Shown: positions 567 through 49,779 of the stretch, piece after piece
Numbering within the stretch: position 1 is the stretch's first letter
Layout: the number at the start of each line of letters is the position of its first letter
NCBI GenBank assembly: GCA_016219965.1
Contig: JACRJM010000002.1
Coordinates: forward strand, 48,233-112,232
DNA: 64,000 bases
Origin: Candidatus Schekmanbacteria bacterium
Lineage (GTDB): Bacteria; Schekmanbacteria; GWA2-38-11; J061
Direction: 5' to 3'
The notes under the pieces: generated by a model
Seen by the model: only the letters and a program-made list of their open reading frames with translations
Told to the model about the DNA's origin: nothing
The model's database searches: none
Position numbers and translations under genes: made by a program

Positions 567-1550
567 TTATTCCTTTATTGCCGTAAGAGTCCAAAACCAG
601 CATAGGTTACTGCACAGGGGTATTTTGAGGAAAAGATTATCAGCTTTGATAATAATATTTTCCACTTTCCTGTTGATTTGCAGGTTTTCTCTGCCGGGAA
701 ATAACTTCTGTAACAGGTCAAGAATGGTTTGTGTGAATCCGCTTAAAAACCACTGCGGATTTATATCTATGGGTTTTAGGGAAGCTTTTTTAGCAAGAGC
801 TAAAATTTGTTTCTTTGAAAAACCCAATCTCTCATCAGGAGAAGCCGGAATGGAGGATGTTTTTTTGACAAATACATTTTTAATTGACCTTAGTGTTTCC
901 AGAAATCCTGTGACGAAAAAATTTGTCATCAGGTTGGGTTCCACAGCAAGAATAAAAGTTCCTTTTGGTTTAAGACAGCGCCGGATTTCGGAGAACACTT
1001 TTAAAGGGAACTTGCAGTGATGCAGGCATGACACCATGTAGATCAGCTCAAATGATTCATCTGCGAAGGGAAGGTAATGCGCATCAATAAGGCAAAAATA
1101 CGCTTCCTCAGAGATTTCTCTTTTTTCAAGAATTGCTTTAGTCCGGCTGGTTATTTCCATGCTGACATCGCTTACGACTACGCGGTATCCCTTTTTAAGC
1201 AGGTTGTATGCGTCTTCACCTCTCCCGCTTCCTATTTCAAGAAATATCGAATCCTCCGGCTGGCTGTTAACACGGCTTAGAAAGTCATTATGCATTAAAG
1301 AGTCAGCTGCTGAATTGAACACCCGCCTCTGGAAGAGAAACTCGAGTTCATTTCCTGAAAGAGTCCCGGATGCACTGCCTCTGTTATTTGAATTCACAGG
1401 AAGCAGGTTTGTTATTCCATCTCTTGCCTCATAGGAACTTGAACATGCGCTGCAAAAAAGATTTCTTCCATCGATAGATAATTTTCCCTTGCATTCCGGA
1501 CACGCCAGAATGTTGTCAATGTGGCTTTTGAAATTTTCTTTAGTTTTCAT
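567..1550 (-). CDS. Class I SAM-dependent methyltransferase with N-terminal Trm112-like zinc ribbon
   Basis: 327-aa ORF. It has a four-Cys ribbon (CPECKG...CSAC), SAM motif I (LEIGSGRGEDA) and an acidic VVVSD strand. It overlaps the upstream radical SAM gene by 4 nt. Confidence 0.8.
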   Translation of the reverse strand: MKTKENFKSHIDNILACPECKGKLSIDGRNLFCSACSSSYEARDGITNLLPVNSNNRGSASGTLSGNELEFLFQRRVFNSAADSLMHNDFLSRVNSQPEDSIFLEIGSGRGEDAYNLLKKGYRVVVSDVSMEITSRTKAILEKREISEEAYFCLIDAHYLPFADESFELIYMVSCLHHCKFPLKVFSEIRRCLKPKGTFILAVEPNLMTNFFVTGFLETLRSIKNVFVKKTSSIPASPDERLGFSKKQILALAKKASLKPIDINPQWFLSGFTQTILDLLQKLFPGRENLQINRKVENIIIKADNLFLKIPLCSNLCWFWTLTAIKE

Positions 1551-3052: not shown

Positions 3053-3155
3053 AGTTTGAAACTGAAAACACTTCTCCTGTTCAATTAACTATGTTGTGTA
3101 TACTTTTTAAAATCCTTTTCTGTTTCTATGTCAATATTATTATTTATATCTAACT

Positions 3156-5907: not shown

Positions 5908-5973
5908 TTGACAAATCAAGGGGTTGCTTTTATACAAAGCCTTTACTTATAGATTCCTGATTTTATTTGTCAA
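5908..5973. promoter_or_regulatory. Putative divergent sigma-70 promoters sharing a 10-bp inverted repeat
   Basis: Plus strand: TTGACA at 5908-5913, 17-nt spacer, TATACA at 5931-5936. Minus strand: TTGACA at 5973-5968, 16-nt spacer, TATAAG at 5951-5946. CTTGACAAAT and ATTTGTCAAG form an inverted repeat. Confidence 0.4.
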
Positions 5974-6019
5974 GCCTAAAGTGGGCCTGCAGTGGACATG
6001 AAACAGAGAGAGGGATGAG

Positions 6020-7420
6020 ATGGAAGGACAGTTCTTAGATTATTTGTTTAATCCGCAGTCAATTGCCCTTGTTGGTGCCTCGGGCAAGGAGGGGAAGCTG
6101 GGTTATTTTTATCTTAAAAATCTTCTTGAATATAAAGGGAAGGTTTATCCGGTTAATCCCAATGAGGAAGAGGTGCTTGGTGTAAAATGTTACAAGAGTG
6201 TAAGTGCCATCGGGGCGCCAGTTGACCTTGTAGTGGTCGTTGTGGCATCGAAGTTCGTCCTAGATGTTATTAAAGAGTGCGCTGAAACAGGGGTGAAGGT
6301 CGTCCTTGTGACTACGGCAGGATTCAGTGAAGCGGGCCCTGATGGAAAAGCCCTCGAAGAAGAGATGCTAAGAATCGCGCGTAATGCAAAGATGAGGATA
6401 GTGGGGCCAAACTGCTTTGGCATAAGGAACTGCAATGCACAGCTAAATGCAACATTCTCATTTGAAGCATCAAAAGAGCCGGGAACGATCTCATTCCTTA
6501 CCCAGAGCGGCGGCGGCGGTGAGGTTATCTATATTCAGGGGAAAGACGAGGGGCTGAAATTCTCCAAATTCATGGTCTGCGGCAACAAAAGCGATTTGGA
6601 CGACTATGAGGTGATAGATTACTTTGGCGATGATCCGGAAACAAAGATAATCTGCCTTTTCCTTGAATCCATAAAGGAAGGAAGGAAGTTCTTTGAATCT
6701 ACTAAAAAAGTCACTGCCAAAAAACCTGTTGTTGTCTGCAAGGTAGGAAGGACAGAAGGCGCGGCACGTGCAGCATCATCACATACAGCCGCCATTGCAG
6801 GAAACTTCACTGCATATGAAACTGCCTTTAAGCAGGCAGGGCTTATAACAACGCGCAATGCTCAGGAAATGCTTGATGTAATAAAAGCAGTTGACTGGCA
6901 GCCTTTGCCGCAGGGTCCAAAGCTTGGAATAATAACAGCTTCAGGCGGTCTTGGCGTTGAACTCACAGATCTCTCAGAGGAAGCGGGACTAAGCGTTATC
7001 GAGCTTGAGCAGCATATTCAGGATCGCATAAAGCCGCTTATCCCTGATTTTGCATGTGCAAAGAACCCGGTGGACATGACTCCGATCTGGGGACAGTTCA
7101 GCGAGGTTATGAAAAAAACAATTGAGGCTTTCTACGATAGCGCCAATGTTGATATAATAGTTCCAATAATCGTACTTCGTGCAACGAGGATGATTGATGT
7201 TTTGGAATCAGTGCGGGATGCAATTCTTTCCTGCCAGGCAAACAGCAAAGTTAAGAAACCTACCTATATATGCTGGGTGAGCTTAAAGGATTCACTTAAG
7301 AACAAAGAGATATTTGAAAAGGCGAAGATACCATGTTTTGAATGGACCGGACGTGTTGCAAGGACTTCTTCTCTTGTTTATGGCTATGCCCAGTACTTAA
7401 AAAAATTGAGAGGTGAATAA
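6020..7420 (+). CDS. ADP-forming acyl-CoA synthetase, alpha part (CoA-binding plus succinyl-CoA-synthetase-like flavodoxin domains)
   Basis: 466-aa ORF. The N-terminus is PQSIALVGASGKEGKLGY...VYPVNP. A GPNCFG loop and the SHTAAIAG phosphohistidine-type segment are present. Confidence 0.8.
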   Translation: MEGQFLDYLFNPQSIALVGASGKEGKLGYFYLKNLLEYKGKVYPVNPNEEEVLGVKCYKSVSAIGAPVDLVVVVVASKFVLDVIKECAETGVKVVLVTTAGFSEAGPDGKALEEEMLRIARNAKMRIVGPNCFGIRNCNAQLNATFSFEASKEPGTISFLTQSGGGGEVIYIQGKDEGLKFSKFMVCGNKSDLDDYEVIDYFGDDPETKIICLFLESIKEGRKFFESTKKVTAKKPVVVCKVGRTEGAARAASSHTAAIAGNFTAYETAFKQAGLITTRNAQEMLDVIKAVDWQPLPQGPKLGIITASGGLGVELTDLSEEAGLSVIELEQHIQDRIKPLIPDFACAKNPVDMTPIWGQFSEVMKKTIEAFYDSANVDIIVPIIVLRATRMIDVLESVRDAILSCQANSKVKKPTYICWVSLKDSLKNKEIFEKAKIPCFEWTGRVARTSSLVYGYAQYLKKLRGE

Positions 7421-7424
7421 AGAA

Positions 7425-8123
7425 ATGCGTGGAGAAGAGAGAGCGAGACGGATATTTTCAACAGCGCGTGAAGAGAAACGCTCATATGTACTTGAGTATG
7501 AGGTAAAAGAGATTCTCAAGGGATATGATATAGATGTAACGAAAGAAGTTGTCTGCAAGACAGTGGACGAAGCCGTACAGGTGGCGAAGAACATAGGGTT
7601 TCCCATCGTGCTTAAAATAGTTTCCACCGAGGTTGTGCATAAGAGCGATTCCGGCGGAGTTAAACTTGGGATAAAGAGCGAAGAAGAGCTCAAAGCTGAA
7701 TTCGATAAAATGCTAGCACTTTACAGCGGAAAGTTTTCAGCCGAGGCGCTAAAGGGTATCTCAGTTCAGGAAATGGTTTCAGGAGAAGAGGTAATAATTG
7801 GAGTGCTAAAAGATTCGCAGTTCGGCCACATGATGATGGTAGGTATGGGAGGAGTTTTCGTAGAAGTGTTTAAGGATGTGGCATACAGGCTTGCCCCGAT
7901 CACCGAGGCAGAAGCAATGGAAATGTTAAAAGAGCTTAAGGGATTCAGGCTCCTTGACGGATACAGGGGGAGAAAACCTGCAAATGTTAAGAGTCTCTGC
8001 GAGACGCTCTCTCGCGTATCAACAGCGCTTGAAGAACTCCCTGAAATAAAGGAGATGGATTTAAATCCTGTTTTTGTCAATGACAAAAGGGCAGTGATAG
8101 CTGACGGCCGCATTTTTATCTGA
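7425..8123 (+). CDS. ADP-forming acyl-CoA synthetase, beta part (ATP-grasp domain)
   Basis: The ORF track starts at GTG 7413. The ATG at 7425 has GAGAGGTG upstream. ATP-grasp character is seen in LEYEVKEILKGYDIDV, GFPIVLKIVS..VHKSDSGGVKLG and DLNPV. Confidence 0.8.
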   Translation: MRGEERARRIFSTAREEKRSYVLEYEVKEILKGYDIDVTKEVVCKTVDEAVQVAKNIGFPIVLKIVSTEVVHKSDSGGVKLGIKSEEELKAEFDKMLALYSGKFSAEALKGISVQEMVSGEEVIIGVLKDSQFGHMMMVGMGGVFVEVFKDVAYRLAPITEAEAMEMLKELKGFRLLDGYRGRKPANVKSLCETLSRVSTALEELPEIKEMDLNPVFVNDKRAVIADGRIFI

Positions 8124-8165
8124 CCTTAATCATTAGGTTTTTATTTTAATCAAGTGGAGAACAGA

Positions 8166-9569
8166 ATGAGCACTTATAATGATCTCAGAGATTTTATAAA
8201 AATTCTGGAAGAGAAGGATGAGCTTAAGCACATAACAAAAGAAGTGAGCTGGGACGAAGAAGCCGCCGCGGTTTTTATAAAATCAGCAAAGAAGAATAAC
8301 AGGGCCCTCATATTTGATAAAGTAAAAGACTCAAAGTTTCCTCTCATCATAGGCACGCTTGCATCGCCTGAAAGGATAAAGCTTGCAATCGGAAAAAGCG
8401 GAGAGGGCTTTGATGATTTTGTGGATAAAGTTCTAAATACCAAGAGAGATGACTTCCCTGCAACAACTGTCGCAAGCGCGCCTTGCCAGGAGGTTGTTAT
8501 CACTGGTGATGATGTTGATCTCCTCTCGCTTCCTATTCCTAAGTTTAACGAGAAGGAAGGGGGGCGCTATATCACGGCAGGCGTTTCGATAAGCTATGAT
8601 CCTGAGACCGGCGCACGTAATGCCGGCGTTTACCGCATGATGGCAAGAGATAAGAACGAGCTCAATGTCAATTTCGGATTCCCCAACAGGCATCTTCTTA
8701 TGCATGCCAAGAAAAGCCAGAAGATGGGAAAGCCCCTTCAGGTTGCCATTGCATTAGGGTGTGATCCGGCTGTCTGGCTTTGTGCTGCAATGCCGCTTCC
8801 TGCAAGCTATGACGAGGTCAATCAGGCAGGCGCGATAAAAGGAAAAGGCATTGAGATGGTAAAGGGGAAGACTATTGATATCAATGTCCCAGCCACTGCG
8901 GAAATTATCCTTGAATGCGAGATGGACATCTCTGTCATGAAGCCTGAAGGTCCTTACAATGATTTTCAGGGCTATTACACAAGAGTAAAAGATAACTATG
9001 TCATCAAAGTTAAAGCTATTACACACCGCAAGGGCGCGATTTTTGAAACAAGCATGACAGGTGCAGTCCCTGAAGGCGAGATGGAAGTTTACCGCCATTT
9101 GCTTTTAAGCCAACAGAAAGTACAGTTGAAAAAAGTGATACCGCAGGTCGAGGCAATGACATTCGATGCGGCGAGCATGGGGCATATTTATATAGTTTCA
9201 GTGCGCAACAAAAGACCATTCATGGCTAACCAGATAGGCAGTGCCATCCTTTCGTTCCCGTGGAGCAACATGGTTAAGATGGTGATCGTTGTTGACAATG
9301 ACATAGATATCTTTGACCCTGCCCAGGTCATGTGGGCGATTGCCACAAGGGTTGATTTTGAAAAGGATGTCACACTTCTTCCCAATATGCCGGGTGCAAG
9401 CTTTGATGTCGGCACAGGCGGAAGAAAAGGCGTAAGCAAGATGATACTTGATGCCACCATGAAGCTTGAAGATGAAGGCTATCCGGGCAAATTCCCCGAG
9501 GCAGGAAGACAGTCAGCGAAGATAGTGCAATTCGTAAGAGATAACTGGAAGTCCTACGGTCTGGATTGA
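8166..9569 (+). CDS. UbiD-family (prenyl-FMN-dependent) decarboxylase
   Basis: The track ORF starts at GTG 8154. The ATG at 8166 follows GGAGA. The protein is about 467 aa and begins DLRDFIKILEEKDELKHI, which is typical UbiD. GRYITAGV and YRMM motifs are present. Confidence 0.85.
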   Translation: MSTYNDLRDFIKILEEKDELKHITKEVSWDEEAAAVFIKSAKKNNRALIFDKVKDSKFPLIIGTLASPERIKLAIGKSGEGFDDFVDKVLNTKRDDFPATTVASAPCQEVVITGDDVDLLSLPIPKFNEKEGGRYITAGVSISYDPETGARNAGVYRMMARDKNELNVNFGFPNRHLLMHAKKSQKMGKPLQVAIALGCDPAVWLCAAMPLPASYDEVNQAGAIKGKGIEMVKGKTIDINVPATAEIILECEMDISVMKPEGPYNDFQGYYTRVKDNYVIKVKAITHRKGAIFETSMTGAVPEGEMEVYRHLLLSQQKVQLKKVIPQVEAMTFDAASMGHIYIVSVRNKRPFMANQIGSAILSFPWSNMVKMVIVVDNDIDIFDPAQVMWAIATRVDFEKDVTLLPNMPGASFDVGTGGRKGVSKMILDATMKLEDEGYPGKFPEAGRQSAKIVQFVRDNWKSYGLD

Positions 9570-9570
9570 G

Positions 9571-9696
9571 GGCAAACGTAAGATTTAGCAGCATACTTTG
9601 TCAGCAGCCAGCTCGCAAATCCTCATGTACAGAAAAGTACACTCCGGTATTGCTCGCCGTCCGCTTTCGCGTCTGCTATCTAAATCTTACGTTTGC
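9571..9696 (+). repeat. Extended-hairpin intergenic repeat of about 125 bp, copy B
   Basis: Perfect 17-bp terminal inverted repeat: GCAAACGTAAGATTTAG at 9572-9588 and CTAAATCTTACGTTTGC at 9680-9696. The central hairpin is TGTAC-agaaaa-GTACA at 9626-9641. The reverse complement aligns with 3193-3315. Confidence 0.75.
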
Positions 9697-9770
9697 AAAA
9701 AAATATATTCAGCTTCCTCGTCTTCCACGCAAAACTTGAATTTGCAAAAAAATGTATTCAGCTTTTCTCT

Positions 9771-9795
9771 GTCATTCCCGTGAAAACGGGAATCC
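9771..9795 (+). repeat. GTCATT-headed hairpin repeat
   Basis: The sequence is gtcATTCCCGtgaaaaCGGGAATcc, with perfect 7-bp arms. Confidence 0.6.
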
Positions 9796-9828
9796 AGTGA
9801 TTTTTTGTTTATTCCTTTTTTTGTATGC

Positions 9829-9910
9829 CATTCTGAGTCCTTCGCTTGTCATTCTGAGCGTAGCGAAGAATCTCATGTTTCGGCTCAGGATAAACTCCGC
9901 GAAGAATCTC
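9829..9910 (+). repeat. Block of short GC-rich repeats (CATTCTGAG x2, GCGAAGAATCTC x2)
   Basis: CATTCTGAG occurs at 9829 and 9850. GCGAAGAATCTC occurs at 9863 and 9899. The block includes the hairpin gtcATTCTgagcgtagcgaAGAATctc at 9848-9874. The track ORFs here are translations of these repeats. Confidence 0.6.
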
Positions 9911-9970
9911 GTTTTTTTCTGTTACTTTTACTCGCTCATCTATAATTTTCAATGGGGGTTTTAAAAAGTA

Positions 9971-10080
9971 GTAGCAATCTCAAACCTATTTATGCCACTT
10001 TATTGTCAGCTTTAATCAAGTTTAAGTTACTATTTTAGACTTTTAATCTTGACTGGCTATCTGCGAGAAATGTATAGAGT
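9971..10080 (+). promoter_or_regulatory. Conserved promoter-bearing leader, copy 1
   Basis: It aligns without gaps to 13790-13899; by my count 87 of the first 100 positions are identical. It contains TTGACT at 10049-10054, an 18-nt spacer, and TATAGA at 10073-10078. Confidence 0.6.
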
Positions 10081-13710: not shown

Positions 13711-13789
13711 GTAAAAATAAGGAGAGCGCCTGTTTTTTATGGAATCTATAAAGGCGGAATTTTAAATCTTATTCTTCTGGTCACTGCCG

Positions 13790-13900
13790 TAACAATCTGA
13801 TACCCATTTATGCCAATTTATTGTCAACTTTGATCAAGTTTAAGTTACTATTTTAAACTTTCCTTCTTGACTGACTATCTGCGAGAGAGATATATAAGTA
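13790..13900 (+). promoter_or_regulatory. Conserved promoter-bearing leader, copy 2
   Basis: Paralogue of 9971-10080. It contains TTGACT at 13868-13873, an 18-nt spacer, and TATATA at 13892-13897. The spacing and offset are the same as in copy 1. Confidence 0.6.
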
Positions 13901-39989: not shown

Positions 39990-40087
39990 TAATGTGCTAC
40001 AGAATGTTCTCTTGAAAATGGTTGAGCTTCAGGATATTTTAAATTTTATAATAAGGTAATTGTTGCTACAGCAAATTGAGGCAGCTT

Positions 40088-41137
40088 ATGGGATTTAAGC
40101 CAAAATACATTATAATTCCGAAGATTAATAAGTCGCTTGTAGAGATTGAACGGGTACGGGGCTTTTTAGATGCGGTTAAGCTAAAGGATGATTGGATTGC
40201 CGACATGCAGGAAAAGGCGCTTATCCTTGAGTCGCATCATTCCACGCATATCGAAGGTACGGCTCTAAGCCTTGAACAGGCAAAGAGCATCTTAGAAGGC
40301 AAAAAGGTTAAGGGTATCAACCGTGATGATGAAAAAGAGCTTTTAAATTATAAGAAGGCGATGGATTTTCTTTCAAGGTACCTTGGGAAGGACGATCCTG
40401 TTACTGAAGGTGTCATCCGCGAGCTACATAAGATCATTGTTAAAAATGTCCGTGGTGGTCAGGCAGATCCGGGGAGTTACCGTAAGATTCAAAACTTTGT
40501 CGTTAATTCCCGCACGAGAGAAGTTATTTATACACCACCGACACCCATAGAGGTTCCGCACCTTATGCGTCAGCTTGTGGAATGGATAAATTCGGCTGAA
40601 GATGTGTCTCCTATAATTGTGGCTGGCATAGCGCAGTTTCAGTTTGTGCATGTTCACCCCTTTATTGACGGTAATGGCAGGACGGCACGGCTTCTTTCAA
40701 CACTTATCCTCTACAAGACCGGTTATGATTTTAAACGGCTTTTTACGATATCGGAGTATTACGACAAGAACCGTTCCGCCTATTATCAGGCAATACAATC
40801 TGTGAGAAACAGCAATATGGACATGACGGTGTGGCTTTCCTATTTCATCGATGGGCTGCAGTCACAGATGAAAGAAATCCAGCAAAAGGGAGAACAATTA
40901 ATTAAGCAGGATTCAATGTTGCAGAAGATTAAGAAAGTTGGCATAAGCACGCGGCAGGAAATGGCGCTTAAATACCTTTTAAGAAACGGCACTATCAGCG
41001 TGAATGAATACCAGTCTGTCATTTCCTGTATCAGACGTACTGCACAGAGGGATTTGGAAGACTTGGTTGAGAAAGGAATCATAAAAGCCGTGTCAAAAAG
41101 TGCTACCGATCCTACCAAACACTATCTTTTACTGTGA
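40088..41137 (+). CDS. Fic-family protein (class II, intramolecular inhibitory helix) with C-terminal wHTH
   Basis: The Fic motif is HPFIDGNGRTARLL. The N-terminal STHIEG matches the (S/T)xxxE(G/N) inhibitory motif. The track ORF starts at TTG 40076; the ATG at 40088 is preferred. Confidence 0.85.
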   Translation: MGFKPKYIIIPKINKSLVEIERVRGFLDAVKLKDDWIADMQEKALILESHHSTHIEGTALSLEQAKSILEGKKVKGINRDDEKELLNYKKAMDFLSRYLGKDDPVTEGVIRELHKIIVKNVRGGQADPGSYRKIQNFVVNSRTREVIYTPPTPIEVPHLMRQLVEWINSAEDVSPIIVAGIAQFQFVHVHPFIDGNGRTARLLSTLILYKTGYDFKRLFTISEYYDKNRSAYYQAIQSVRNSNMDMTVWLSYFIDGLQSQMKEIQQKGEQLIKQDSMLQKIKKVGISTRQEMALKYLLRNGTISVNEYQSVISCIRRTAQRDLEDLVEKGIIKAVSKSATDPTKHYLLL

Positions 41138-41177
41138 CAGGTTACTGTGACATACTGTGACAGGTTACTGTGACAGG
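41129..41177 (+). repeat. Tandem repeat, 4 copies of (T)TACTGTGACA(GG)
   Basis: The ACTGTGACA core occurs at 41131, 41144, 41154 and 41167, giving periods of 13, 10 and 13 nt. Each core carries CTGT-n-ACAG dyad symmetry. The first unit contains the fic stop codon. Confidence 0.8.
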
Positions 41178-41220
41178 GTTAGCTGAAACTATAAGGGATT
41201 TAGTAGAAAACAATATATGT

Positions 41221-41985
41221 TCAATTTTGCCTCAAAACAATCCTTCTCATTTTCCATACAGTATGACTCGCTTTATCCTCCGAGTTTGTGAGCTTAAAGA
41301 GAGCATTTGATATATTCTCGATTTCAGGGGGACTTAAACGTTTCTGTACAAACTCGCTTTGCCTCCAGGTTGTAGTAGTATTTGGTAAAAACCATGTCGC
41401 AGCCTGGCTGTCCGCAACCGGTAGAATAGCGCAATCATCGATAAGAATCTCTGCATCGTAATTTTTTCCCGCCAATTCCTGACCGACAAAAAGATGAGCG
41501 CCTTGCGTTGCCACGAGGGCTTCATTGGTAGAAAGATATAGCTTGAATACTTCGATTTCAGTTTCAATAGCCTCAACTTCCTCGATCACTATGGTGCCGC
41601 CTGTCTTCAGTTGAGTGACCCAATTTTTAATAACTTCTACAGGGTTTGGCAGATGGGATAAGATAAATCGCGCATACATGACATCCCCCATTACCGGGAA
41701 AGGTGCTACAGTGATATCATGCTCTATGAAATGGCAATGCGGGAACCTGCTCTTAGCTATGTCAAGAAAGACGGGTGAATTGTCCAGTCCATAAATCTCG
41801 TGCGGTTTTATGGCTTGATAAAGCATATCTGTCGTAAAGCCCGGACCGCATCCTATATCAAAAGCTATGGCGGGAGATTTTTTAATGTACTGTGTGAGCA
41901 GCGCAGAAGCCAGGGGATTGAAGAATTTAGAGATTTCTTCCAGCCTGGAGGCAGCTTCGTTTCCTGTTCCGAATGTGTACTTCAT
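41221..41985 (-). CDS. Class I SAM-dependent methyltransferase
   Basis: 254-aa ORF. Motif I is AFDIGCGPGFTT. Confidence 0.8.
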   Translation of the reverse strand: MKYTFGTGNEAASRLEEISKFFNPLASALLTQYIKKSPAIAFDIGCGPGFTTDMLYQAIKPHEIYGLDNSPVFLDIAKSRFPHCHFIEHDITVAPFPVMGDVMYARFILSHLPNPVEVIKNWVTQLKTGGTIVIEEVEAIETEIEVFKLYLSTNEALVATQGAHLFVGQELAGKNYDAEILIDDCAILPVADSQAATWFLPNTTTTWRQSEFVQKRLSPPEIENISNALFKLTNSEDKASHTVWKMRRIVLRQN

Positions 41986-42014
41986 ATAATATAGCTACTC
42001 TCCGGAAGGCGACC

Positions 42015-42031
42015 GGTCAAGAAGATTGTCT
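42015..42031 (+). repeat. 17-bp direct repeat, left copy
   Basis: GGTCAAGAAGATTGTCT is identical to 43776-43792. Here it forms part of the hairpin AAGAAGATTG-tctaaag-CAATCTTCTT. Confidence 0.8.
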
Positions 42032-42149
42032 AAAGCAATCTTCTTCTAAAAGGACGCTAAGTCAAAATGGGATTATTGTTTTAATGTAGAGAGTTTACGT
42101 ATTCTTCTGGTGGTTAAGAAAATTACAAGCATTTAATACTAAACTCTTA

Positions 42150-43493
42150 TCAGTTAATCTTGTGGGATCTTGTGGATTTTCGTGGATGTCGCTTAAGTCG
42201 GTTGGAAGGCGGTGGTTCAATTTCTCTAACATCTTCCTCTTTGCTGGTAGTTTGCTCAAGTACAAAAGGTTCTCCGTAGCATTGTTGATACACTTCGGGG
42301 AATTCTTTCTGTTGTCTTAATTCCTTGAAGATTGGCCATTGCTTATAGTAGGCTTGGTGAAATTCTGCATCATGCTTAAGCTTACCCATCAGCTTGTATG
42401 CTTTTAGATAGTCTCCTTTAAGTACAGCTACTGCCAACTTAAATTTATCTTCGCATGCACTCCAATCTTCCAAAGATATAATTTGCTCACATTGCTTATT
42501 GTCGCCAAGCCATTTATATGCTTGGGCTCTATTTAATATCATCATTCTTTTACTTGTCTCATCCGAATGCTTCATTTGGTCTTGTGTAAATAAATCTAAT
42601 ATCCGAATTGCTAATGAATACTCTCCTTTGCGGATGAGTTCATATGTTATATCCACTATATTTGTATCTGAGTCTTCGAGACGGTCTGGACAAAGACGTC
42701 TCCAAATGACATGAGCTAACTTAACGCCAATTTCATAAATGCAATTATACGCTTCGGCGAAATATGAAATTGGTGCTTCTAGTTGATCACCGATTTTGCA
42801 CTGATCCGGGAGTGGACATTTGTGTTCAGAACAGACTCTCAGGTACTGAGAACATATTTTTCCGTCACAATGTACAAATAAATTGCGTCTTTCTGTTAGT
42901 TCGATAAAAGTTGGCCAGCTTAATAGTTCCTTATTGAAGGAGGTCTTAAGTTTCTCCTTGAGCCATGCAAACTGATCAACATGACTCCTTCTAATAATTG
43001 ATTCTACCTCTTTTTCAATAATATACTCCTTTACCGCTTCGATATTTTGAAATCGTATGAGGTCAGTGTACGGTATTGCCTTCTCTGAAGCATTCAGCAT
43101 TTCCGGCTTTACAGCGAAGATAAACCTTATAACTTGCCCCAGAAAAGAGTCATATTGGGATACTAGAGAAATAACAAAATGGCGAGGAACTAGCCGACAT
43201 GCAGTTCTTAAATTTCCATACTCTCTTTCTAACTGTGCTAACGGGCCAGAATGACCAGCGTCGACAGAATATATAAATATTTTTCCTTCTTTCTTAATTT
43301 CGATGTGGTGCTTCTCTATATATAAATTCTTTTTTTTTCTAGCCTCGCTAAGAACATAGCCAGTGACATTTGTTAATAATGGAAGAGTAGTCCACAGGCT
43401 CTCAATATCTTGGGTGAACTTACCAATTTCTCCGGCAAGAATTTCGGTAGGATGTTTACCTGTTGAGGTTTCTGAGTCCACATGTTTCCTCAT
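42150..43493 (-). CDS. HEPN-like (Rx4-6H) domain protein with TPR-like C-terminal region, putative abortive-infection/defence gene
   Basis: About 447 aa from the ATG at 43493; the track uses TTG 43508. ELTERRNLFVHCDG matches the HEPN Rx4-6H motif. The C-terminus has TPR-like helices (AQAYKWLGDNKQCEQII, AVAVLKGDYLKAYKLMGKL). Both flanks are AT-rich. Confidence 0.45.
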   Translation of the reverse strand: MRKHVDSETSTGKHPTEILAGEIGKFTQDIESLWTTLPLLTNVTGYVLSEARKKKNLYIEKHHIEIKKEGKIFIYSVDAGHSGPLAQLEREYGNLRTACRLVPRHFVISLVSQYDSFLGQVIRFIFAVKPEMLNASEKAIPYTDLIRFQNIEAVKEYIIEKEVESIIRRSHVDQFAWLKEKLKTSFNKELLSWPTFIELTERRNLFVHCDGKICSQYLRVCSEHKCPLPDQCKIGDQLEAPISYFAEAYNCIYEIGVKLAHVIWRRLCPDRLEDSDTNIVDITYELIRKGEYSLAIRILDLFTQDQMKHSDETSKRMMILNRAQAYKWLGDNKQCEQIISLEDWSACEDKFKLAVAVLKGDYLKAYKLMGKLKHDAEFHQAYYKQWPIFKELRQQKEFPEVYQQCYGEPFVLEQTTSKEEDVREIEPPPSNRLKRHPRKSTRSHKIN

Positions 43494-43775
43494 CTGGTGG
43501 TTGAGCAATCAATATATTAAGCTACTTTTGTAGTCTTATTATATTCTAAAATAATTTTATATAATTTTTAAAGGTATCTGGTCAAGATAATTACCTAAGA
43601 CAAAAAGTAAATGGTAAAATATTTAGCTCTTTCTTTATTTCGTTTCCTTACAATTAACGCTATGTTAATAAGTTATTAATAGAAGAGCAGAGAATTACCA
43701 AATAGAATCAAATTATTTGTAAAGCCTATTTCTAAAAAGCATACTATCCATTTTATATAATTCTGCAAAACTCCT

Positions 43776-43792
43776 GGTCAAGAAGATTGTCT
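43776..43792 (+). repeat. 17-bp direct repeat, right copy
   Basis: GGTCAAGAAGATTGTCT is identical to 42015-42031. Confidence 0.8.
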
Positions 43793-43908
43793 TATTGAAA
43801 GGGCACTTTTCTCTTGAATTTTGTTCGTCAATGTGTCTTTAGATTTTATAATTGGAAGATGAGCTATGAGCTTTTAGCTGTTTAACTTCTCTTTGAGGGG
43901 GGATCCTG

Positions 43909-45738
43909 ATGGAAACGCTCAATATTGCAAGGCCGGATTACAACCCAAAAGTATCAAAAATCCCGGAGTTAATAGGCAGGCACCCAGGAACGATTGCACC
44001 TGTTATCAAATGCAGGCCGCAGGCTGTACAGATCGTAACACCTGTAAGCGGCTCCCGCGTTTCAGGAAAAATTGAGATTAAAGTGAGAATCAGGGATGGT
44101 TATCCTGAGGTCTCCGACAACCTTAAGAAAATAGCCGTCACAGTGAACGGGGAGAAATTTGAGTTCAATCAATCACCCTGTTCTGTTTTTTATGACACGG
44201 CACCGCTCGGTTTCCGCATTATGAAAATAAAAGCAGAGGCCATAGGGAAGGGTGAAGAAGGGGAAAACGATGTCCTTTCATCATACTACATAAATGTTGC
44301 CGCAGAGAACGGCGCATTTGACAGGACAAAGCCCCTTATCCTTTTTACAGGCGTCATAGAGCCAAAGCTCACCAACATAGACAAGCCGTGGACTTCTCAA
44401 ATGTACAAGGACTGTTATCTTTTTTCTAAGAACATAATGGACCATCTCATGCATTATGGGTTTGTTCCATCATTTTTAAAAGAGGTCGATCAGTTGAGCG
44501 TGCTTATCGATCCCACTCAGCCTAAAAAAGGTTTTGAGGAATACACGCCTGTTAAACTTATTGATGTGCTTGGAAGGGAAAAGGGACCAGGACAGGAAAA
44601 GACATACACGGAGATGATTCCAGACTGTGTCTGGATGGAGCCTACCAAGACAAGGCTAGGAACTGTGCTTCGCGGCTATCATACTCCGAACTCCTTTACA
44701 CCGAATGATATGGCGGATATTTACGAAGTCTTTGCCGCAAGGGTGTGCACATACTACAATCAATTTGAAAAGTTTTCCGGAATGAGGGGATGGGACCAGA
44801 CCCAGATGCTTTTTAACGACGTAATGGAGAGGCTCGAAAAGGCGGGTTATAATTATCCCTGGGAACCATATTCACTTCTCATTGGTGAAAAGCCGCATAC
44901 CCTGAAGGAAAAGATAAAAAAACATGTTCTTCAAAACAACATCTCAAGCGTTCTTCTTTCAGACTATCTCACAGACCTTTCAGATTTTGAAGATGCCAAG
45001 TGCCTCTGGGAGGAAGCGCAGGAGGCTGTTGATCTTGTGGCGCAGGAAACTGGCAGGAAGCTTCAGCTCGCAGTCCTCTGGTCAACCGGGGGAAGACTGA
45101 TGGGAATCCATCCGGGTTTTGCGGAGGCGGCGTTAAAAGTCACGCAAAATGAGATAGAGTCATCTGGCATCCCTGAAAATGCAAAAATTGGTATGATCCT
45201 TGGCGAGCATGGCTATCCTCCGGGCAATGGCGACGAGGACGTGATCGGGATCAACATGGAGCGGGTTAGACAGAACATGAGAAGCCATTATGACAGGAAG
45301 CTTAAAGGGCTGAGAAAAGGATATACAGAGTACCATCTTGGCATGAATGAATTTAACAACAATCCGGAATCATACCAGATTGGCTCAATGGAATGGATGG
45401 TTGACTATCTCCACAGGGGCTTTGACTGTATCATCTTCCAGCCCTACTACTTTACGAACGAGACCATAGACCTCTTTGAACATCTGCGCCACTGGGCATT
45501 TGAAGTGGATGGCGTTGATGGCCATGAATTCCACGGCGGCCATGAGGTGCTTGACAATTACAGGAGCGATTTCAATTTCAGAGGGACAAGGATAATAATC
45601 ACCGGCTCTATCGTCGGCAGGTATGAAAAAGACGGCGCAAAATCGCCGCTCCTAAAGGAAGGCTATAATCTTTTCACAGGAGCGATTGCAGAGCAGATCG
45701 GGGAAAGGATAGAAGAGCTCGGTGTTCCTTCAATATGA
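43909..45738 (+). CDS. Hypothetical protein (Ig-like N-terminal segment; weakly chelatase-like C-terminal region)
   Basis: 609-aa ORF with a GAGGGGGG RBS. An Ig-like segment is VQIVTPVSGSRVSGKIEIKVRIRDG. The C-terminal GEHGYPPG ... FQPYYFTNETIDLFEHL weakly recalls class II chelatase/ferrochelatase motifs. Confidence 0.3.
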   Translation: METLNIARPDYNPKVSKIPELIGRHPGTIAPVIKCRPQAVQIVTPVSGSRVSGKIEIKVRIRDGYPEVSDNLKKIAVTVNGEKFEFNQSPCSVFYDTAPLGFRIMKIKAEAIGKGEEGENDVLSSYYINVAAENGAFDRTKPLILFTGVIEPKLTNIDKPWTSQMYKDCYLFSKNIMDHLMHYGFVPSFLKEVDQLSVLIDPTQPKKGFEEYTPVKLIDVLGREKGPGQEKTYTEMIPDCVWMEPTKTRLGTVLRGYHTPNSFTPNDMADIYEVFAARVCTYYNQFEKFSGMRGWDQTQMLFNDVMERLEKAGYNYPWEPYSLLIGEKPHTLKEKIKKHVLQNNISSVLLSDYLTDLSDFEDAKCLWEEAQEAVDLVAQETGRKLQLAVLWSTGGRLMGIHPGFAEAALKVTQNEIESSGIPENAKIGMILGEHGYPPGNGDEDVIGINMERVRQNMRSHYDRKLKGLRKGYTEYHLGMNEFNNNPESYQIGSMEWMVDYLHRGFDCIIFQPYYFTNETIDLFEHLRHWAFEVDGVDGHEFHGGHEVLDNYRSDFNFRGTRIIITGSIVGRYEKDGAKSPLLKEGYNLFTGAIAEQIGERIEELGVPSI

Positions 45739-46760
45739 TGGATAAAGCAACTTTCAGGTACACGGTTTTCTTTATGATCCTTGCTGTCCTGCTGATGGTT
45801 TCCATTCTCTTTGGATATTCATTCTGGAAACCGGGGTTAGATGTCACAGACGGAAGATATGATGTAGGGAAAAACGGCATCTGGATCCAGCACGGCTGGA
45901 TTGGCGGCGACGAATGGTTTGTTGAAAACGATAAAAAAGACAGGATCATTGATTTCAGGAATGCCGAACGGGTTAAAGCGCTTGCAACGCAATTGAGGGA
46001 ACACAATATCACATATGTGTTCCCTCACCTTTGTCCCACTTCTGTAAACGGTGTAATCCCGAACGTTGATTCTGAACAGACCAAACTCTTTCTTAAGACT
46101 TTTGAAGGTTTAAATGTCATGCCCTGGGTTGGCGGAGTCAGAGGCATTCAGGCTTTCCCTGAAAAACCTGAATGGAGGAAAAACTTTGCCGGGTCTATCC
46201 GCAATCTGCTTACAACTTATCCGGAATTTTCAGGCATCCATATCAATATTGAACCATCCCCTGTTAGCTCAAGGGAATTCCTTGTTTTGCTCGATGAAGT
46301 GAAAAGTGCGTTTCCGGAAGATGGAAAAAAGAGGATACTGTCTGTTGCAATATCCTCGCCTCCAATGCTTTCGAATCCATTCTCCAAAGCAAACAGGAAG
46401 AAGGATTACTACCGCGAAGTTGCAAAGCATTGCGACCAGATGGTGGTCATGATGTATGATACGTCTATCCAGTTTGAGAAGGTATATCAATATTTAATGG
46501 CTAAATGGACGCAGGAGATAATCTCCTGGTCAGGCGAGAGAGACGTTCTTCTGGGGATTCCTGCCTACAAGGACGAAGGAGTTTATTATCATAATCCAAG
46601 GGTTGAGAACATTGAGAATGCACTTCTTGGAATTAATGCAGGGCTTAGCCATTACGCTACGCTTCCCAAAAACTATCAGGGAATATCTATATATTGCGAA
46701 TGGGAGATGGAACCCGACGAATGGAAGTTATTGGAGGAGCACTTCCAGCAGTTAAAGTAA
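45735..46760 (+). CDS. Membrane-anchored GH18-like (chitinase-fold TIM barrel) protein
   Basis: 341-aa ORF whose ATG overlaps the upstream stop (ATGA). It has an N-terminal TM helix. SGIHINIEP sits where GH18 has DGxDxDxE. MMYD and LLGIPAY match the GH18 MxYD and GxPxYG strands. Confidence 0.45.
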   Translation: MMDKATFRYTVFFMILAVLLMVSILFGYSFWKPGLDVTDGRYDVGKNGIWIQHGWIGGDEWFVENDKKDRIIDFRNAERVKALATQLREHNITYVFPHLCPTSVNGVIPNVDSEQTKLFLKTFEGLNVMPWVGGVRGIQAFPEKPEWRKNFAGSIRNLLTTYPEFSGIHINIEPSPVSSREFLVLLDEVKSAFPEDGKKRILSVAISSPPMLSNPFSKANRKKDYYREVAKHCDQMVVMMYDTSIQFEKVYQYLMAKWTQEIISWSGERDVLLGIPAYKDEGVYYHNPRVENIENALLGINAGLSHYATLPKNYQGISIYCEWEMEPDEWKLLEEHFQQLK

Positions 46761-46797
46761 ACTATCCATATTTGTGAAGCTGGTTGAGTTTTAAACT

Positions 46798-47127
46798 TTA
46801 TTGACTCAGCTTAGTGCTGGTAAGACGATTAAGGCTGACTCCTGCCTCAGCAGCCTGGATTGCAAGCTTCTGATGGACTTGCGGAGGAACGCGCACCATA
46901 AATTTACCGCTGTAATGTCTTGATGCAATTGGTTCTGGCACATCTTCTCCTTCGTTACGCATGTCTTTTACCACTTTTTCAACTAATTTACGGATTCCTT
47001 TTAATGCCCCCTCAGGAGTCTTTGCCAGCCAGCTTAGACTGTGGAATTCAGCGCACAACCCAGCATATTCATTGTCGTCCTCGGACCATGTTATCCGGTA
47101 CGTGTACTTATCTTTTTTCATAGTCAT
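46798..47127 (-). CDS. hicB: HicB-family antitoxin
   Basis: The ATG at 47127 follows GGAGGT. YRITWSEDDNEYAGLCAEFHSLSWLAKTPEGALKGI is the HicB N-domain. The C-terminal RHH-like part is FMVRVPPQVHQKLAIQAAEAGVSLNRL. Confidence 0.85.
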   Translation of the reverse strand: MTMKKDKYTYRITWSEDDNEYAGLCAEFHSLSWLAKTPEGALKGIRKLVEKVVKDMRNEGEDVPEPIASRHYSGKFMVRVPPQVHQKLAIQAAEAGVSLNRLTSTKLSQ

Positions 47128-47161: not shown

Positions 47162-47320
47162 CTACTTTACCTGATATACTTTTGCCTTTCCCTTGTTATT
47201 CTGAATATTTATTCTTGGGTATCCTTGCCATGGGGTTTTGTAAATTCGATGACTGCTCCCATGTTGACGAGGGGAAGTTGTTAGAAAATCATTTTGTGCG
47301 GGGAAAATAAAATCACCAGT
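47162..47320 (-). pseudogene. hicA: HicA-family toxin remnant (5' end interrupted by the IS30 element; apparent premature TAG)
   Basis: My own minus-strand translation gives ...RQHGSSHRIYKTPWQGYPRINIQNNKGKAKVYQVK*. The GSxH and KGKAKxYQVK motifs are HicA-like. There is no start codon between the IS end and the motif. The frame past the TAG continues as VLLALERLEV. Confidence 0.6.
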
Positions 47321-48370
47321 TCAATAATGAAGTGCAACACTTGGGAAAGCAGAAAGGAAGATGCTATCCTAAGTTGCTATGTCAAAAGAATACATTCATT
47401 TAAGTATATTTGAAAGAGATAAAATTACTATTATGCTTTCAGAGAAGAAAACACTTGGAGAGATAGGAAAAGAGCTTGGGCGAAGTAAAAGCACTATCTC
47501 GCGGGAGTTAAAGCGCAATTCTTCTCCAGAGTATAAGCTCTACTTGTCACACAGAGCTCATACTCGTTCTGTTTTGAGACGAGAGGCGGCAAGTTCACGC
47601 GCGAGGCTTAAAGACAAGCACATCAAGTTATATGTGCGCGACAAGCTCAAGGAAGGCTGGTCGCCTGAGCAGATATCAGGAAGAATAGGCATTGATTTTC
47701 CATGCCTCTCAATAAGCCATGAGGCGATTTATCAGTATGTTTACAGCTCTGAAACAGAGGGACGTCAGGATTTGATTCAGTGCCTGAGACGGTCACATCG
47801 TAAGCGCAAAAGCAAGGGGATCTCGAGGAAAGTGCGTAAAACAAAGATACCCAACAGGATATCTATAGAGCAAAGACCGGCAGCAGTGGAAGCACGTCTT
47901 GAGGCTGGACACTGGGAATCAGACAGCCTGGTATCCAGAAAAAGCCATGTTGCCCTTAACTCGCTGGTAGAACGAAAGAGCCGGTTGCTGAGGCTCACGA
48001 AACTGAACCGAAAAACAGCCGCATCTACATACGAGGTTATTGTTGAAAGGTTAAAAGACCTTCCTATTGAGGCGAGAAGGACGCTAACCATGGATAACGG
48101 CACTGAAAATGCAGAGCATCAGGAGATTACTGCTGCCATTGGAATAAAATGTTATTTTGCTCATCCATACGCCTCATGGGAGCGCGGAACTAATGAAAAT
48201 ATCAATGGTCTCATAAGGTGGTACTTACCAAAAGGTACTGACTTTAATACCATAACCAACGAACAAATAGCTCGCATCGAATCATTGATTAACAATAGGC
48301 CAAAAAAGTGCCTTGACTATAAAACACCATTAGAAGTAGCTTCTCAATTTGTTGCACTTCGAGGTTGAAT
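47320..48370 (+). mobile_element. IS30-family insertion sequence (about 1.05 kb)
   Basis: Imperfect terminal inverted repeats are TTCAATAATGAAGTGCAACACTTG (left) and CAATTTGTTGCACTTCGAGGTTGAA (right), sharing the core GAAGTGCAACA. The transposase stop lies inside the right IR. The exact ends are uncertain by a few bp. Confidence 0.75.
47379..48368 (+). CDS. IS30-family transposase
   Basis: 329-aa ORF. The N-terminal HTH is LGEIGKELGRSKSTISRELKRN. It also has GHWESD and LTMDNGTE..H...........YFAHPYASWERGTNENINGLIR, the IS30 DDE signature. Confidence 0.9.
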   Translation: MSKEYIHLSIFERDKITIMLSEKKTLGEIGKELGRSKSTISRELKRNSSPEYKLYLSHRAHTRSVLRREAASSRARLKDKHIKLYVRDKLKEGWSPEQISGRIGIDFPCLSISHEAIYQYVYSSETEGRQDLIQCLRRSHRKRKSKGISRKVRKTKIPNRISIEQRPAAVEARLEAGHWESDSLVSRKSHVALNSLVERKSRLLRLTKLNRKTAASTYEVIVERLKDLPIEARRTLTMDNGTENAEHQEITAAIGIKCYFAHPYASWERGTNENINGLIRWYLPKGTDFNTITNEQIARIESLINNRPKKCLDYKTPLEVASQFVALRG

Positions 48371-48417: not shown

Positions 48418-49053
48418 TTATTTTTTTCTTGGAGGCCATAGGGCTTCTTTTATTAATCTTTTTTCAATAACTTGTTCAGAAACTCCAAAATATCGCGCTA
48501 TCCCCGGTGAAATGTATTCTCGTGTAGATTCACCTGACGAGTCCCATGTATCAAAGCCTTTAGTTTGCGCTATTGATACAGAGTGATCGAGCCTTTCAAC
48601 TAGTTTTTCTCTTGGGACAAGCAACCTCCCTGCAAATTCATAGGCATGTTGTTCAATCCATGTATATTCATCATCTGGTATTTCTTGAAAAAAATCTATC
48701 CATTCTTCAACTGAGGAATACTGAATTTTTGAAAAGATATCGGGATGAAGTACAAAGTGGCCTACTTCATGAGCCATGGAGAATCTCAATCTGTTTTCTG
48801 CGCGTTCATTTAAGAAGTCTTTTTGATCAACGACAATTGTTTTAAGATCTCCAAGCAGAAGGGCATCAACATCACCAGCTTCTCGCAAATTATTAATCGG
48901 GCGTATTTCTATTTCTAATTCAAATTCAATAAGCTCAAAAATATCAATAGGGATAATATTGGAAGGCCAATACTTGGAGCGAAATGCATCAGCTTTAGCT
49001 CTTATATCATCAATCTTTATAAAAGGTGCTTTAAATTTTTTTGGCTCTAACAC
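48418..49053 (-). CDS. ImmA/IrrE-family zinc metallopeptidase
   Basis: 211-aa ORF with an HEXXH motif (MAHEVGHFVLH). It sits immediately downstream of an XRE-type gene. Confidence 0.8.
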   Translation of the reverse strand: MLEPKKFKAPFIKIDDIRAKADAFRSKYWPSNIIPIDIFELIEFELEIEIRPINNLREAGDVDALLLGDLKTIVVDQKDFLNERAENRLRFSMAHEVGHFVLHPDIFSKIQYSSVEEWIDFFQEIPDDEYTWIEQHAYEFAGRLLVPREKLVERLDHSVSIAQTKGFDTWDSSGESTREYISPGIARYFGVSEQVIEKRLIKEALWPPRKK

Positions 49054-49059
49054 GGAAGA

Positions 49060-49437
49060 TTAACTTTTCTTAATTTTATCTGCTAATTTACGCATTTCTT
49101 CTTTGGTTGGTTTTTGTCCTCGCAATGTTCGAAAAAACACCGGGAGCAAATTGACGACTTCTGCATCAGATATAAGGTCCTTAGGTATAATTCCCCGCGC
49201 TATGGAAGCAAGATCAACAAATGTGTACCAGTCATCACTGCCAACATCAATTCCAAGAGCTTTAGCGTACCTTTCGAGAATATCCGGGTCCTGAGGAGGC
49301 GGCATAGTGTCGCGTTCAAGCCGGCTGATATTGGCTGGGTCTGCCAATGCCTTCAAACAAAATTCTCTTAAAGTTATCCTCTTTTTCTTGCGGAGACTCT
49401 TAAGGAATTCTCCAAAAGACTTATATTGGTTAGCCAT
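49060..49437 (-). CDS. XRE-family helix-turn-helix transcriptional regulator
   Basis: The start is the Met at 49437 (MANQYKSFGEFLKSLRKKKRITLREFCLKA...ISRLERD). The longer track ORF adds an implausible N-terminus. Confidence 0.75.
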   Translation of the reverse strand: MANQYKSFGEFLKSLRKKKRITLREFCLKALADPANISRLERDTMPPPQDPDILERYAKALGIDVGSDDWYTFVDLASIARGIIPKDLISDAEVVNLLPVFFRTLRGQKPTKEEMRKLADKIKKS

Positions 49438-49779
49438 AACCTGCCCTCTTTTTGAATTTGTATTTATTGTACAAATAATACAACATATTTTGTTGATGTC
49501 AAATGATTTATAATTGTAAATTGTTGTAGTCTGGTCTTCAGCTATCAAATATTTATTTCAAACCGTTTTTATTTTCTTAAATTTTTCCATTTCTGGCAAC
49601 AAGCCGTGAAGTTTACCCCCATCTCTTTTTAAATTGTCATTATTAATACATGGTGTCGGATTTCAGGACATTTTATTTCTTTTTGAAAAAACAGAAAACC
49701 ATCTGGGAATCTGTTATTGCAAAATATTATCTAAATATTTCAATTAGTAGCAGTTATCTTCAATAAATTATCAAATAAG

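Follow-up and report, generated by a model that had tools for sequence, protein, structure and literature searches.

The 64,000-nt stretch of DNA analysed here (hereafter the window; contig JACRJM010000002.1, positions 48,233-112,232 of the forward strand, assembly GCA_016219965.1) comes from Candidatus Schekmanbacteria bacterium (Schekmanbacteria; GWA2-38-11; J061) and contains a 1,761-bp unit, made up of one copy of a 17-bp sequence and a 1,744-bp block with a single gene, that is missing from the same site in a related metagenome contig (L085). The explanation that we favour as a whole, with a confidence somewhat better than even, is that the block is foreign DNA that arrived as a circular form and was integrated by an exchange within the 17 bp, and that its cargo is a probable solitary HEPN-type RNase. 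An earlier note on this DNA had proposed an inserted one-gene module with a HEPN-like gene, bracketed by an exact 17-bp direct repeat, and had suggested looking for a related genome with an empty site.

Such an empty site was found through a Joint Genome Institute (JGI) metagenome search with the neighbouring 609-aa protein as query. In the window, the unit lies between a gene for a class I S-adenosylmethionine (SAM)-dependent methyltransferase (41221-41985, minus strand) and the divergently transcribed gene for the 609-aa protein (43909-45738, plus strand; weak Big_7 match), which is followed in both the window and L085 by a GH18-like gene (45735-46760 in the window). L085 is a 3,115-bp contig whose methyltransferase, 609-aa and GH18-like proteins are 93%, 97% and 92% identical to those of the window, and in which 160 bp separate the starts of the methyltransferase and 609-aa genes, with one copy of the 17-mer in between. 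Positions 1-672 of L085 align with window 41360-42031 at 90.0% identity and positions 656-3113 with window 43776-46235 at 92.8% identity. These two alignments overlap by exactly the 17-mer, which makes the 1,761-bp unit a genuine presence/absence polymorphism whose boundaries are defined to the nucleotide. The number of repeat copies, two in the window and one in L085, is that of both a target duplication and an attachment (att) core, and the inserted module of the earlier note is borne out to this extent. A Logan contig of a landfill run (X5) reproduces L085 300-1100 across the junction with zero differences. An exact 26-nt empty-site pattern gave 0 matches in genome and metagenome contigs; the real empty site carries two substitutions just outside the repeat relative to the pattern searched. 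Separately, in a microbial mat run (X8), a 180-nt contig matches L085 at 98% identity rightwards from position 654; the 11 letters before this, CCTCAGGATTG, are unmatched and stop 2 nt left of the 17-mer. The contig, which is short, may represent a third arrangement at the same breakpoint.

Both copies of the repeat, GGTCAAGAAGATTGTCT, are exact on the plus strand of the window, at 42015-42031 (left copy, 29 nt upstream of the methyltransferase start codon) and at 43776-43792 (right copy, 116 nt upstream of the 609-aa gene), as the earlier note had described, and no further copy with up to 3 mismatches occurs in the 64 kb. Its judgement that the repeat is unlikely by chance also stands, since two matches at no more than 2 mismatches were found in 0 of 100 dinucleotide shuffles; at no more than 3 mismatches they were found in 1 of 100. 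The junctions were followed in four runs (X1-X4), as contigs, in which rare forms are dropped. A 7,130-bp Logan contig of run X1 covers window 40216-47000 with zero differences, and low-coverage contigs cross the left and right junctions in X2 and X3, such that both junctions were assembled independently in three runs of the same groundwater study. That the repeat arose by chance or through chimeric assembly is hardly credible: the metagenomic origin of the data is the sole point in favour of this explanation, while it is contradicted by the shuffles, by the three independent assemblies of both junctions, by the precise break of the L085 empty site at the repeat, and by the length of the repeat, which is below the k-mer length usual for assemblers (longer than 17 bp). 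In viral contigs, the 17-mer had 9 matches, which we take as chance because they belong to 3 unrelated sequence families.

Between the two repeat copies we find one credible gene and no other credible open reading frame (ORF), in agreement with the earlier note. The ORF (42150-43493, minus strand) encodes 447 aa from an ATG, or 443 aa from the GTG at 43481 that is the gene caller's start (protein P0001). A look-up of P0001 by identity gave no record. The remainder of the insert is non-coding DNA, with 118 nt on the 3' side (42032-42149, minus strand; guanine-plus-cytosine (GC) content 0.30), where a second, imperfect hairpin lies directly past the stop codon, and 282 nt on the AT-rich 5' side (43494-43775, minus strand; GC 0.25), which holds two promoter-like modules. 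These flanks contain no credible partner ORF of at least 20 aa, and neither they nor the rest of the window have a match in Rfam. The block ends, AAAGCAATCTTC... and AGGAGTTTTGCA..., are unrelated, with no terminal inverted repeats, and no transposase or recombinase is encoded in the block, the single ORF having no match to a transposase family. The insert also stands out in composition: with a GC content of 0.357 it ranks among the lowest 0.6% of 1,744-bp windows in this sequence, and the GC content at third codon positions (GC3) of the ORF is 0.335 versus 0.43-0.51 in the flanking genes. Low GC and GC3, together with the patchy and context-free distribution of the gene family described below, make an insertion in the window lineage more economical than a precise deletion in the L085 lineage, which would leave the origin of two repeat copies to explain.

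The left junction has a structure that the right one lacks. A perfect 10-7-10 palindrome spans 42019-42045, consisting of AAGAAGATTG (42019-42028), the spacer TCTAAAG and CAATCTTCTT (42036-42045). Its left arm lies within the repeat, and its right arm is insert-specific and missing from the L085 empty site. The hairpin with 10-bp arms reported in the earlier note at the left copy is thereby confirmed, with z-scores of -3.3 and -3.8 for the two strands when folded as DNA, and it is restricted to that copy, as the right junction and the L085 empty site have one arm each. The window contains the AAGAAGATTG core three times: each repeat copy has one, and the third is the inverted one at 42036-42045. 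The 7-bp spacers are unlike between the junctions (TCTAAAG vs TCTTATT). The complete 27-nt palindrome had 0 matches in viral contigs. Tyrosine-recombinase core sites have inverted arms, each of about 10 bp, on either side of a 6-8-bp spacer, and in this geometry the palindrome fits a core-type recombination site.

The most likely route into the chromosome would be the integration of a circular block by a single reciprocal exchange within the 17 bp, the repeat being a sequence common to the incoming DNA and its target that would end up with one copy at each junction. Because the insert-specific arm is the inverted complement of the repeat core at a distance of 7 nt, the circular form would carry the complete site, AAGAAGATTG-TCTAAAG-CAATCTTCTT, and its expected junction would read ...ACTCCT-GGTCAAGAAGATTGTCT-AAAGCAATC..., while the chromosome, as in L085, would supply one arm and the first 3 nt of the spacer. 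The recombining enzyme would have to act in trans because the block encodes none. What would have been delivered is a foreign block of 1,744 bp with one gene, two promoter-like sequences and a 3' hairpin, placed inside the short divergent promoter region between the methyltransferase gene and the 609-aa gene, the latter for a putative surface protein, in a polysaccharide locus.

The place of the exchange within that promoter region can be described more closely. On the minus strand, the 17-mer reads AGACAATCTTC-TTGACC, and the left copy thus contains a -35-like hexamer upstream of the methyltransferase gene. Four sequences can be aligned in register as TAAGACAATCTTCTTGACC, 16-18 nt and a TATA-rich box: the methyltransferase upstream regions of the window and of L085, and the two promoter-like modules of the insert, both on the minus strand. 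Module P1 (43750-43788) has the right 17-mer copy as its -35 side. Module P2 (43554-43592; TCTTGACC, 16-18 nt, TATATAAAAT) lies 196 bp further in, is 74% identical to P1 over this 39-nt repeat, and includes a third, diverged copy of the 17-mer (13/17 matches) at about 43580-43596. Given this register, the exchange would lie on the -35 side of the methyltransferase promoter, and both the methyltransferase gene and the gene of the block would end up behind a promoter-like sequence containing TTGACC.

A confident AlphaFold2 model of the encoded protein (30-sequence alignment; predicted local distance difference test (pLDDT) score 87, predicted template modelling (pTM) score 0.82) has three parts: a long helical hairpin at the N-terminus (residues 15-128) that is tipped by a beta-hairpin, a central all-alpha domain and a C-terminal TPR-like alpha-solenoid. 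The TPR-like C-terminal helices seen in the earlier note agree with the weak TPR/PCI-type matches of the whole protein in a Foldseek search against the PDB (E ≥ 0.03, probability up to 0.96). The ORF also contains ELTERRNLFVHCDG, which that note had read as an Rx4-6H motif of HEPN type; in the central domain of the model, this corresponds to R203-N-L-F-V-H208, preceded by E164-x3-R168 (E164-S-I-I-R168). The conserved central positions are D115, R123, E160-K-E162, E164, R168, H171 and W193-x2-F-x-E-x-T-E-R-R-N-L-F-V-H208. Among 30 relatives with 37-62% identity, R203, N204, E160-K-E162 and R168 are invariant, and E164 and H208 are kept in at least 90%. The HEPN signature has been described as Rx4-6H with a polar residue (N/D/H) after the R and an upstream Ex3[KR] (PMC3710099), and both elements are found in the family.

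The gene belongs to a large family, with 1,221 relatives at E ≤ 1e-3 in a clustered collection, all of about 420-460 aa and all annotated as hypothetical. In a scan of one genome per species, 225 genomes encode a relative; the 80 loci kept from these come from Lentisphaerota, Planctomycetota, Verrucomicrobiota, Acidobacteriota, Bacteroidota, Cyanobacteriota, Actinomycetota, Chloroflexota, Nitrospirota and Proteobacteria. In many phyla the gene is solitary amid unrelated neighbours. It adjoins bacteriophage exclusion (BREX) genes at locus L001, lies beside integrases and IS66 at L003, and directly follows a type I restriction-modification (R-M) operon on the Crinalium plasmid pCRI9333.03; Nostoc plasmids also carry it, and no homologue was found in phage genomes. 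Additional observations at these loci concern genes next to the family member. Beside the family gene at L003:5211-5702, L007:5199-5690 and L061:2537-3025 is a protein of about 163 aa with an R-N-x3-H motif (EQLRNNIIH, TIRNNLFHGG) and no Pfam domain on record; in some lineages this protein could be an additional, HEPN-like partner. In a Flavobacterium metagenome-assembled genome (MAG), an Abi_2 (AbiD/F) gene with LRNTCAHH (L035:2326-3219) lies directly downstream of the family gene, placing two HEPN-motif genes side by side. Comparison of two Acidobacteria MAGs (L118 and L119) shows the family member P0087 followed by a pair of genes, for a 91-aa protein and a PIN_3 protein, in one genome and not in the other, which is a second small accessory-module insertion or deletion at a locus of the family. 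In Cyclobacterium sp. (L080:5861-7538), the family gene is split into ORFs at 6001-6495 and 6583-7353 and is probably decaying.

Several members of the family show signs of mobility. Locus L025 (MAG of Ca. Eiseniibacteriota, CALOCN010000008.1, 700-13000) is a chromosomal integron array in which at least 11 sites, each about 135 nt long, start with CCTAAC, end with GTTAGGC and are spaced 565-1,766 bp apart, and the family gene at 5944-7326 is unmistakably one of its cassettes. We looked for attC sites with a home-made detector based on R''/R' boxes and folding, which is not a validated model and which recovers 16 sites in L025; it gave attC-like candidate sites next to the family gene at L022, L061, L032 and L065. 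Locus L072 repeats the architecture of the window, with an exact 17-bp repeat of unrelated sequence around a 1,535-bp unit (GC 0.30 vs 0.38-0.41 in the flanks) at a divergent intergenic site, the downstream repeat copy being 22 nt before the next co-oriented ORF. At L035, a 15-bp repeat surrounds a 1,942-bp unit with a GC content of 0.29. When exact flanking repeats of at least 15 bp were counted at 76 real loci and at control placements within the same loci, they were present at 4 of the 76 loci versus 0.7% of control placements (about 7-fold, Poisson p ~0.002), an enrichment that is real but modest. Flanking repeats also have other causes, such as the attC sites of L025, paired terminators at L067 and, at L080, a 108-nt upstream-region repeat (81% identity) that surrounds the family gene and is also the upstream region of the gene at 7558-8292. 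The contigs of the closest homologue (P0002) show neither flanking repeats nor a circular overlap, and their non-coding DNA is not conserved.

On motif grounds, we regard the assignment of the protein to the HEPN-type RNases as close to an even call that leans in its favour. It shares with the HEPN abortive-infection and toxin RNases (AbiD/AbiF, 'Ribo L-PSP-HEPN', TPR-fused LA2681; Anantharaman et al. 2013, PMC3710099) the R-N-x3-H motif with its polar residue, the upstream Ex3R, a predicted all-alpha domain fused to TPR-like repeats, and its occurrence as a solitary, patchily distributed gene that is sometimes beside R-M or BREX genes. It differs from them in lacking a significant match to a Pfam HEPN profile or to a solved fold, in the negative comparison with Abi_2, and in its long N-terminal helical hairpin, which is not a described HEPN accessory. 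Profile and fold searches indeed weigh on the other side. The window protein has no match in Pfam (E ≤ 0.01), NCBIfam, PADLOC or PHROG, and none in sequence and profile searches of the PDB. A model of the domain alone (pLDDT 89) found no PDB fold with E < 1 in Foldseek, and in BFVD a MAE_28990-like HEPN protein was reached at E 1.3 only, the best match there being an uncharacterised siphovirus protein (E 4e-4, template modelling (TM) score 0.72). Comparison with the Abi_2 profile by hhalign gave a probability of 0.3%, with a narrow reference whose members are at least 60% identical to the query. Sub-threshold HEPN_RiboL-PSP matches occur in 3 of the 30 relatives (E 0.016-0.09, 13-16 bits vs a cut-off of 28.4), two of which (E 0.016 and 0.09) align residues 98-209 with profile positions 27-160 of 191. 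Of the HEPN reading in the earlier note, the motif part is strong, with Rx4H, N after R and the upstream Ex3R all conserved throughout the family, while the HEPN fold received no confirmation from Pfam, PDB folds or the Abi_2 profile.

If the assignment is right, the cargo would probably be a solitary, metal-independent HEPN-type RNase with R203, N204, H208 and E164 as catalytic residues, a coiled-coil N-terminus and a TPR-like C-terminal sensor, and motifs and contexts would suggest an abortive-infection or toxin-like accessory gene. The gene has no adjacent small partner of the kind found in type II toxin-antitoxin systems and, with no partner gene, the protein, if toxic, must be self-restrained; the predicted TPR-like tail would be the obvious candidate for this role. 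A role in defence, which the earlier note had also suggested, is plausible, by guilt by association. Among 130 immediate neighbours of family genes, a few match defence models (HEC-05, PDC-S35, TIR effectors, GmrSD/RmrA, Abi_2), and most are housekeeping genes, which counts against such a role.

The proposed integration has its own difficulties. No tyrosine-recombinase-like ORF or intI was found in the 64 kb by crude searches (motif search and BLAST, with part of the ORFs scanned against Pfam), and no excision joint or circular form was seen in the four runs X1-X4, whose contigs cannot show rare forms. The empty site has one palindrome arm, and a classical lambda-type exchange would not tolerate spacers that differ as TCTAAAG and TCTTATT do. 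Identity on one side of a heterologous spacer is known for Xer-dependent elements, integrons and CTnDOT/NBU-type sites, which are one-strand-exchange or heterology-tolerant systems. L085 is the single close relative: other relatives of the 609-aa protein (~60% identity) have different neighbours and are not syntenic, so there is no outgroup for polarity, and with one syntenic relative the direction of change, insertion versus deletion, rests on composition. Finally, instead of marking a recombination site, the 17-mer could be conserved as part of a promoter or operator. In its full form, this alternative, which we consider rather unlikely, involves no dedicated mobility and holds that the 17-mer is a conserved cis-regulatory element, made up of a -35 region and a site upstream of it, before both the methyltransferase gene and the HEPN-motif gene, that the gene arrived earlier by whatever route, and that L085 lost it by recombination or slippage between the copies. 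It would account for the TTGACC within the 17-mer and for its register with TATA-rich boxes in four promoter-like sequences, one of them the third 13/17 copy inside the insert, as well as for a 17-mer that is unchanged between lineages whose flanks differ by 7-10%, and a deletion between direct repeats gives exactly the picture seen in L085. It fits less well with the abrupt end of identity beyond the 17 bp: similarity on the methyltransferase side is marginal (p 0.035 vs L085, 0.125 vs the window copy) and on the other side absent (p ~0.9), and a longer, older duplication was rejected on these grounds. It also fits poorly with the lack of any other copy with up to 3 mismatches in 64 kb and with the foreign composition of the block, leaves the palindromic partner arm without explanation, and still needs an insertion-type event to produce two identical copies.

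Other explanations keep the insertion and change the machinery. A non-autonomous transposon or cargo element moved in trans, with a 17-bp staggered cut and the repeat as its target-site duplication, would suit the exactly 17-bp repeats of unrelated sequence around units of 1.5-1.8 kb at two independent loci (the window and L072) and the 15-bp repeat of L035. Some insertion sequence (IS) groups (IS1202/ISTde1-like) and casposons make duplications of 14-17 bp. We nevertheless consider a transposon quite unlikely, as the insert ends have no terminal inverted repeats, the complementarity of insert end and target would be a coincidence of ~1e-5, and the only transposase seen near the block, 3.6 kb away, is of IS30 type, elements that make target duplications of 2-3 bp. 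An integron cassette, whose circle an integron integrase would have placed at a secondary site other than attI, has in its favour the bona fide cassettes of the family in the L025 attC array, the probable ones at L022, L061, L032 and L065, and the defence-gene cassettes documented in references cited in a recent preprint (bioRxiv 10.64898/2026.03.17.712381). The window itself speaks against it, and we hold this origin to be very unlikely: there is no RYYYAAC...GTTRRRY site in the 118 nt past the stop codon or anywhere in the window according to our detector, no such boxes came up when the 118 nt were read and folded, the crude searches of the 64 kb saw no intI-like gene, the block does not sit in an array beside intI/attI, and IntI exchange leaves a GTT-type junction only and not a 17-bp duplication. 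The attC array with which the earlier note had contrasted the block was likewise not recovered, as the detector found no attC-like site in the window and direct-repeat searches show no array. A more far-reaching proposal, to which we give little credence, is that the family as such is a minimal selfish cassette, with one gene, its own promoter and a terminal palindrome, that enters promoter regions at short sequences matching its own end, leaves repeats of about 17 bp, hijacks a host recombinase or relies on its encoded protein, and also travels as an integron cassette.

Set against known systems, the closest parallels to how the block would work are an att-flanked cassette without an integrase and an integron cassette that has left its platform. 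Integrase-less att-flanked elements mobilised in trans include CIME-type elements, Xer-dependent IMEX and NBU/CTnDOT-type sites, the last with a common core of 10-14 bp next to a heterologous overlap. The window unit resembles these in its direct repeats of an att-like core around the cargo, the single copy at the empty site, and the inverted arms around a 7-bp spacer with identity on one side of it, and differs in its smaller size (1.7 kb, one gene), in a promoter-region target instead of a tRNA gene or dif site, and in that neither a cognate recombinase nor an excised form was found. As there are no tRNA genes at the site, it is not a tRNA-targeting island. Of the features of a site-specific element, core repeats and an empty site are thus present, while recombinase and excised form were not found. 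IS elements and miniature inverted-repeat transposable element (MITE)-like elements with long target duplications (IS1202/ISTde1 group, casposons) are similar in size (1.5-1.9 kb), in their single ORF of about 450 aa and in their 15-17-bp repeats, but the window block lacks terminal inverted repeats, and its ORF, which matches no transposase family, has a predicted all-alpha structure instead of a DDE/RNase H-like or Cas1 fold. With integron cassettes whose cargo is a phage-defence gene (Kieffer 2025, Darracq 2025 and Getz 2025, as cited in bioRxiv 10.64898/2026.03.17.712381), the block has in common a one-gene unit of about 1.5 kb with a structured site 3' of the ORF, and homologues of its gene are real cassettes in L025; it differs in having no attC or platform, in bringing 280 bp of promoter region of its own, and in a junction repeat of 17 bp instead of the GTT type. 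Membership as an integron cassette (no attC or platform), as a transposon (no terminal inverted repeats or transposase) or as a toxin-antitoxin pair (no partner) therefore failed in each case.

The genes around the block in the window include polysaccharide synthesis, Fic and IS30 genes. Within the Fic/DOC gene (40076-41137), the segment 40205-40800 has a word depth of up to ~575 versus ~33 in the surrounding contig in run X1, and dozens of short variant contigs with 85-95% identity map onto it; the gene is either multi-copy or common to many community members. The convergent gap between this gene and the methyltransferase gene holds a tandem repeat of TACTGTGACAGGT in 23-nt double units (41130-41188). 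On the other side, the IS30-type element (47320-48369) encodes a transposase with HTH_38 and rve domains (47379-48368) and is bounded by imperfect inverted repeats of 31 nt (47320-47350 and 48339-48369); an M78-peptidase/XRE-HTH gene pair (48418-49548) comes next. Elsewhere in the window, within 9660-10076 and at 13789-13894, a 106-nt repeat (86% identity) lies upstream of two different genes, which start at 10126 and 13992, and a 49-nt tandem pair lies at 9660-9757; neither repeat has a match in Rfam.

The window and L085 provide a clean natural before/after pair for the acquisition of a single accessory gene, with base-exact junctions and no mobility gene in the block, of a kind that is rarely documented outside integrons. 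The insertion lies in the promoter of a polysaccharide-locus gene and keeps the -35-like element of that gene, which shows how cassettes could settle without obvious cost to the host. The family itself comprises more than 1,000 sequence clusters in many phyla, is covered by no Pfam, NCBIfam, PADLOC or PHROG model, and conserves a HEPN-type signature; recurring as integron cargo and beside R-M or BREX genes, it makes a good candidate for a new phage-defence or toxin system that consists of one protein. If the more far-reaching proposal above were true, the family would represent a previously unrecognised kind of minimal selfish cassette.

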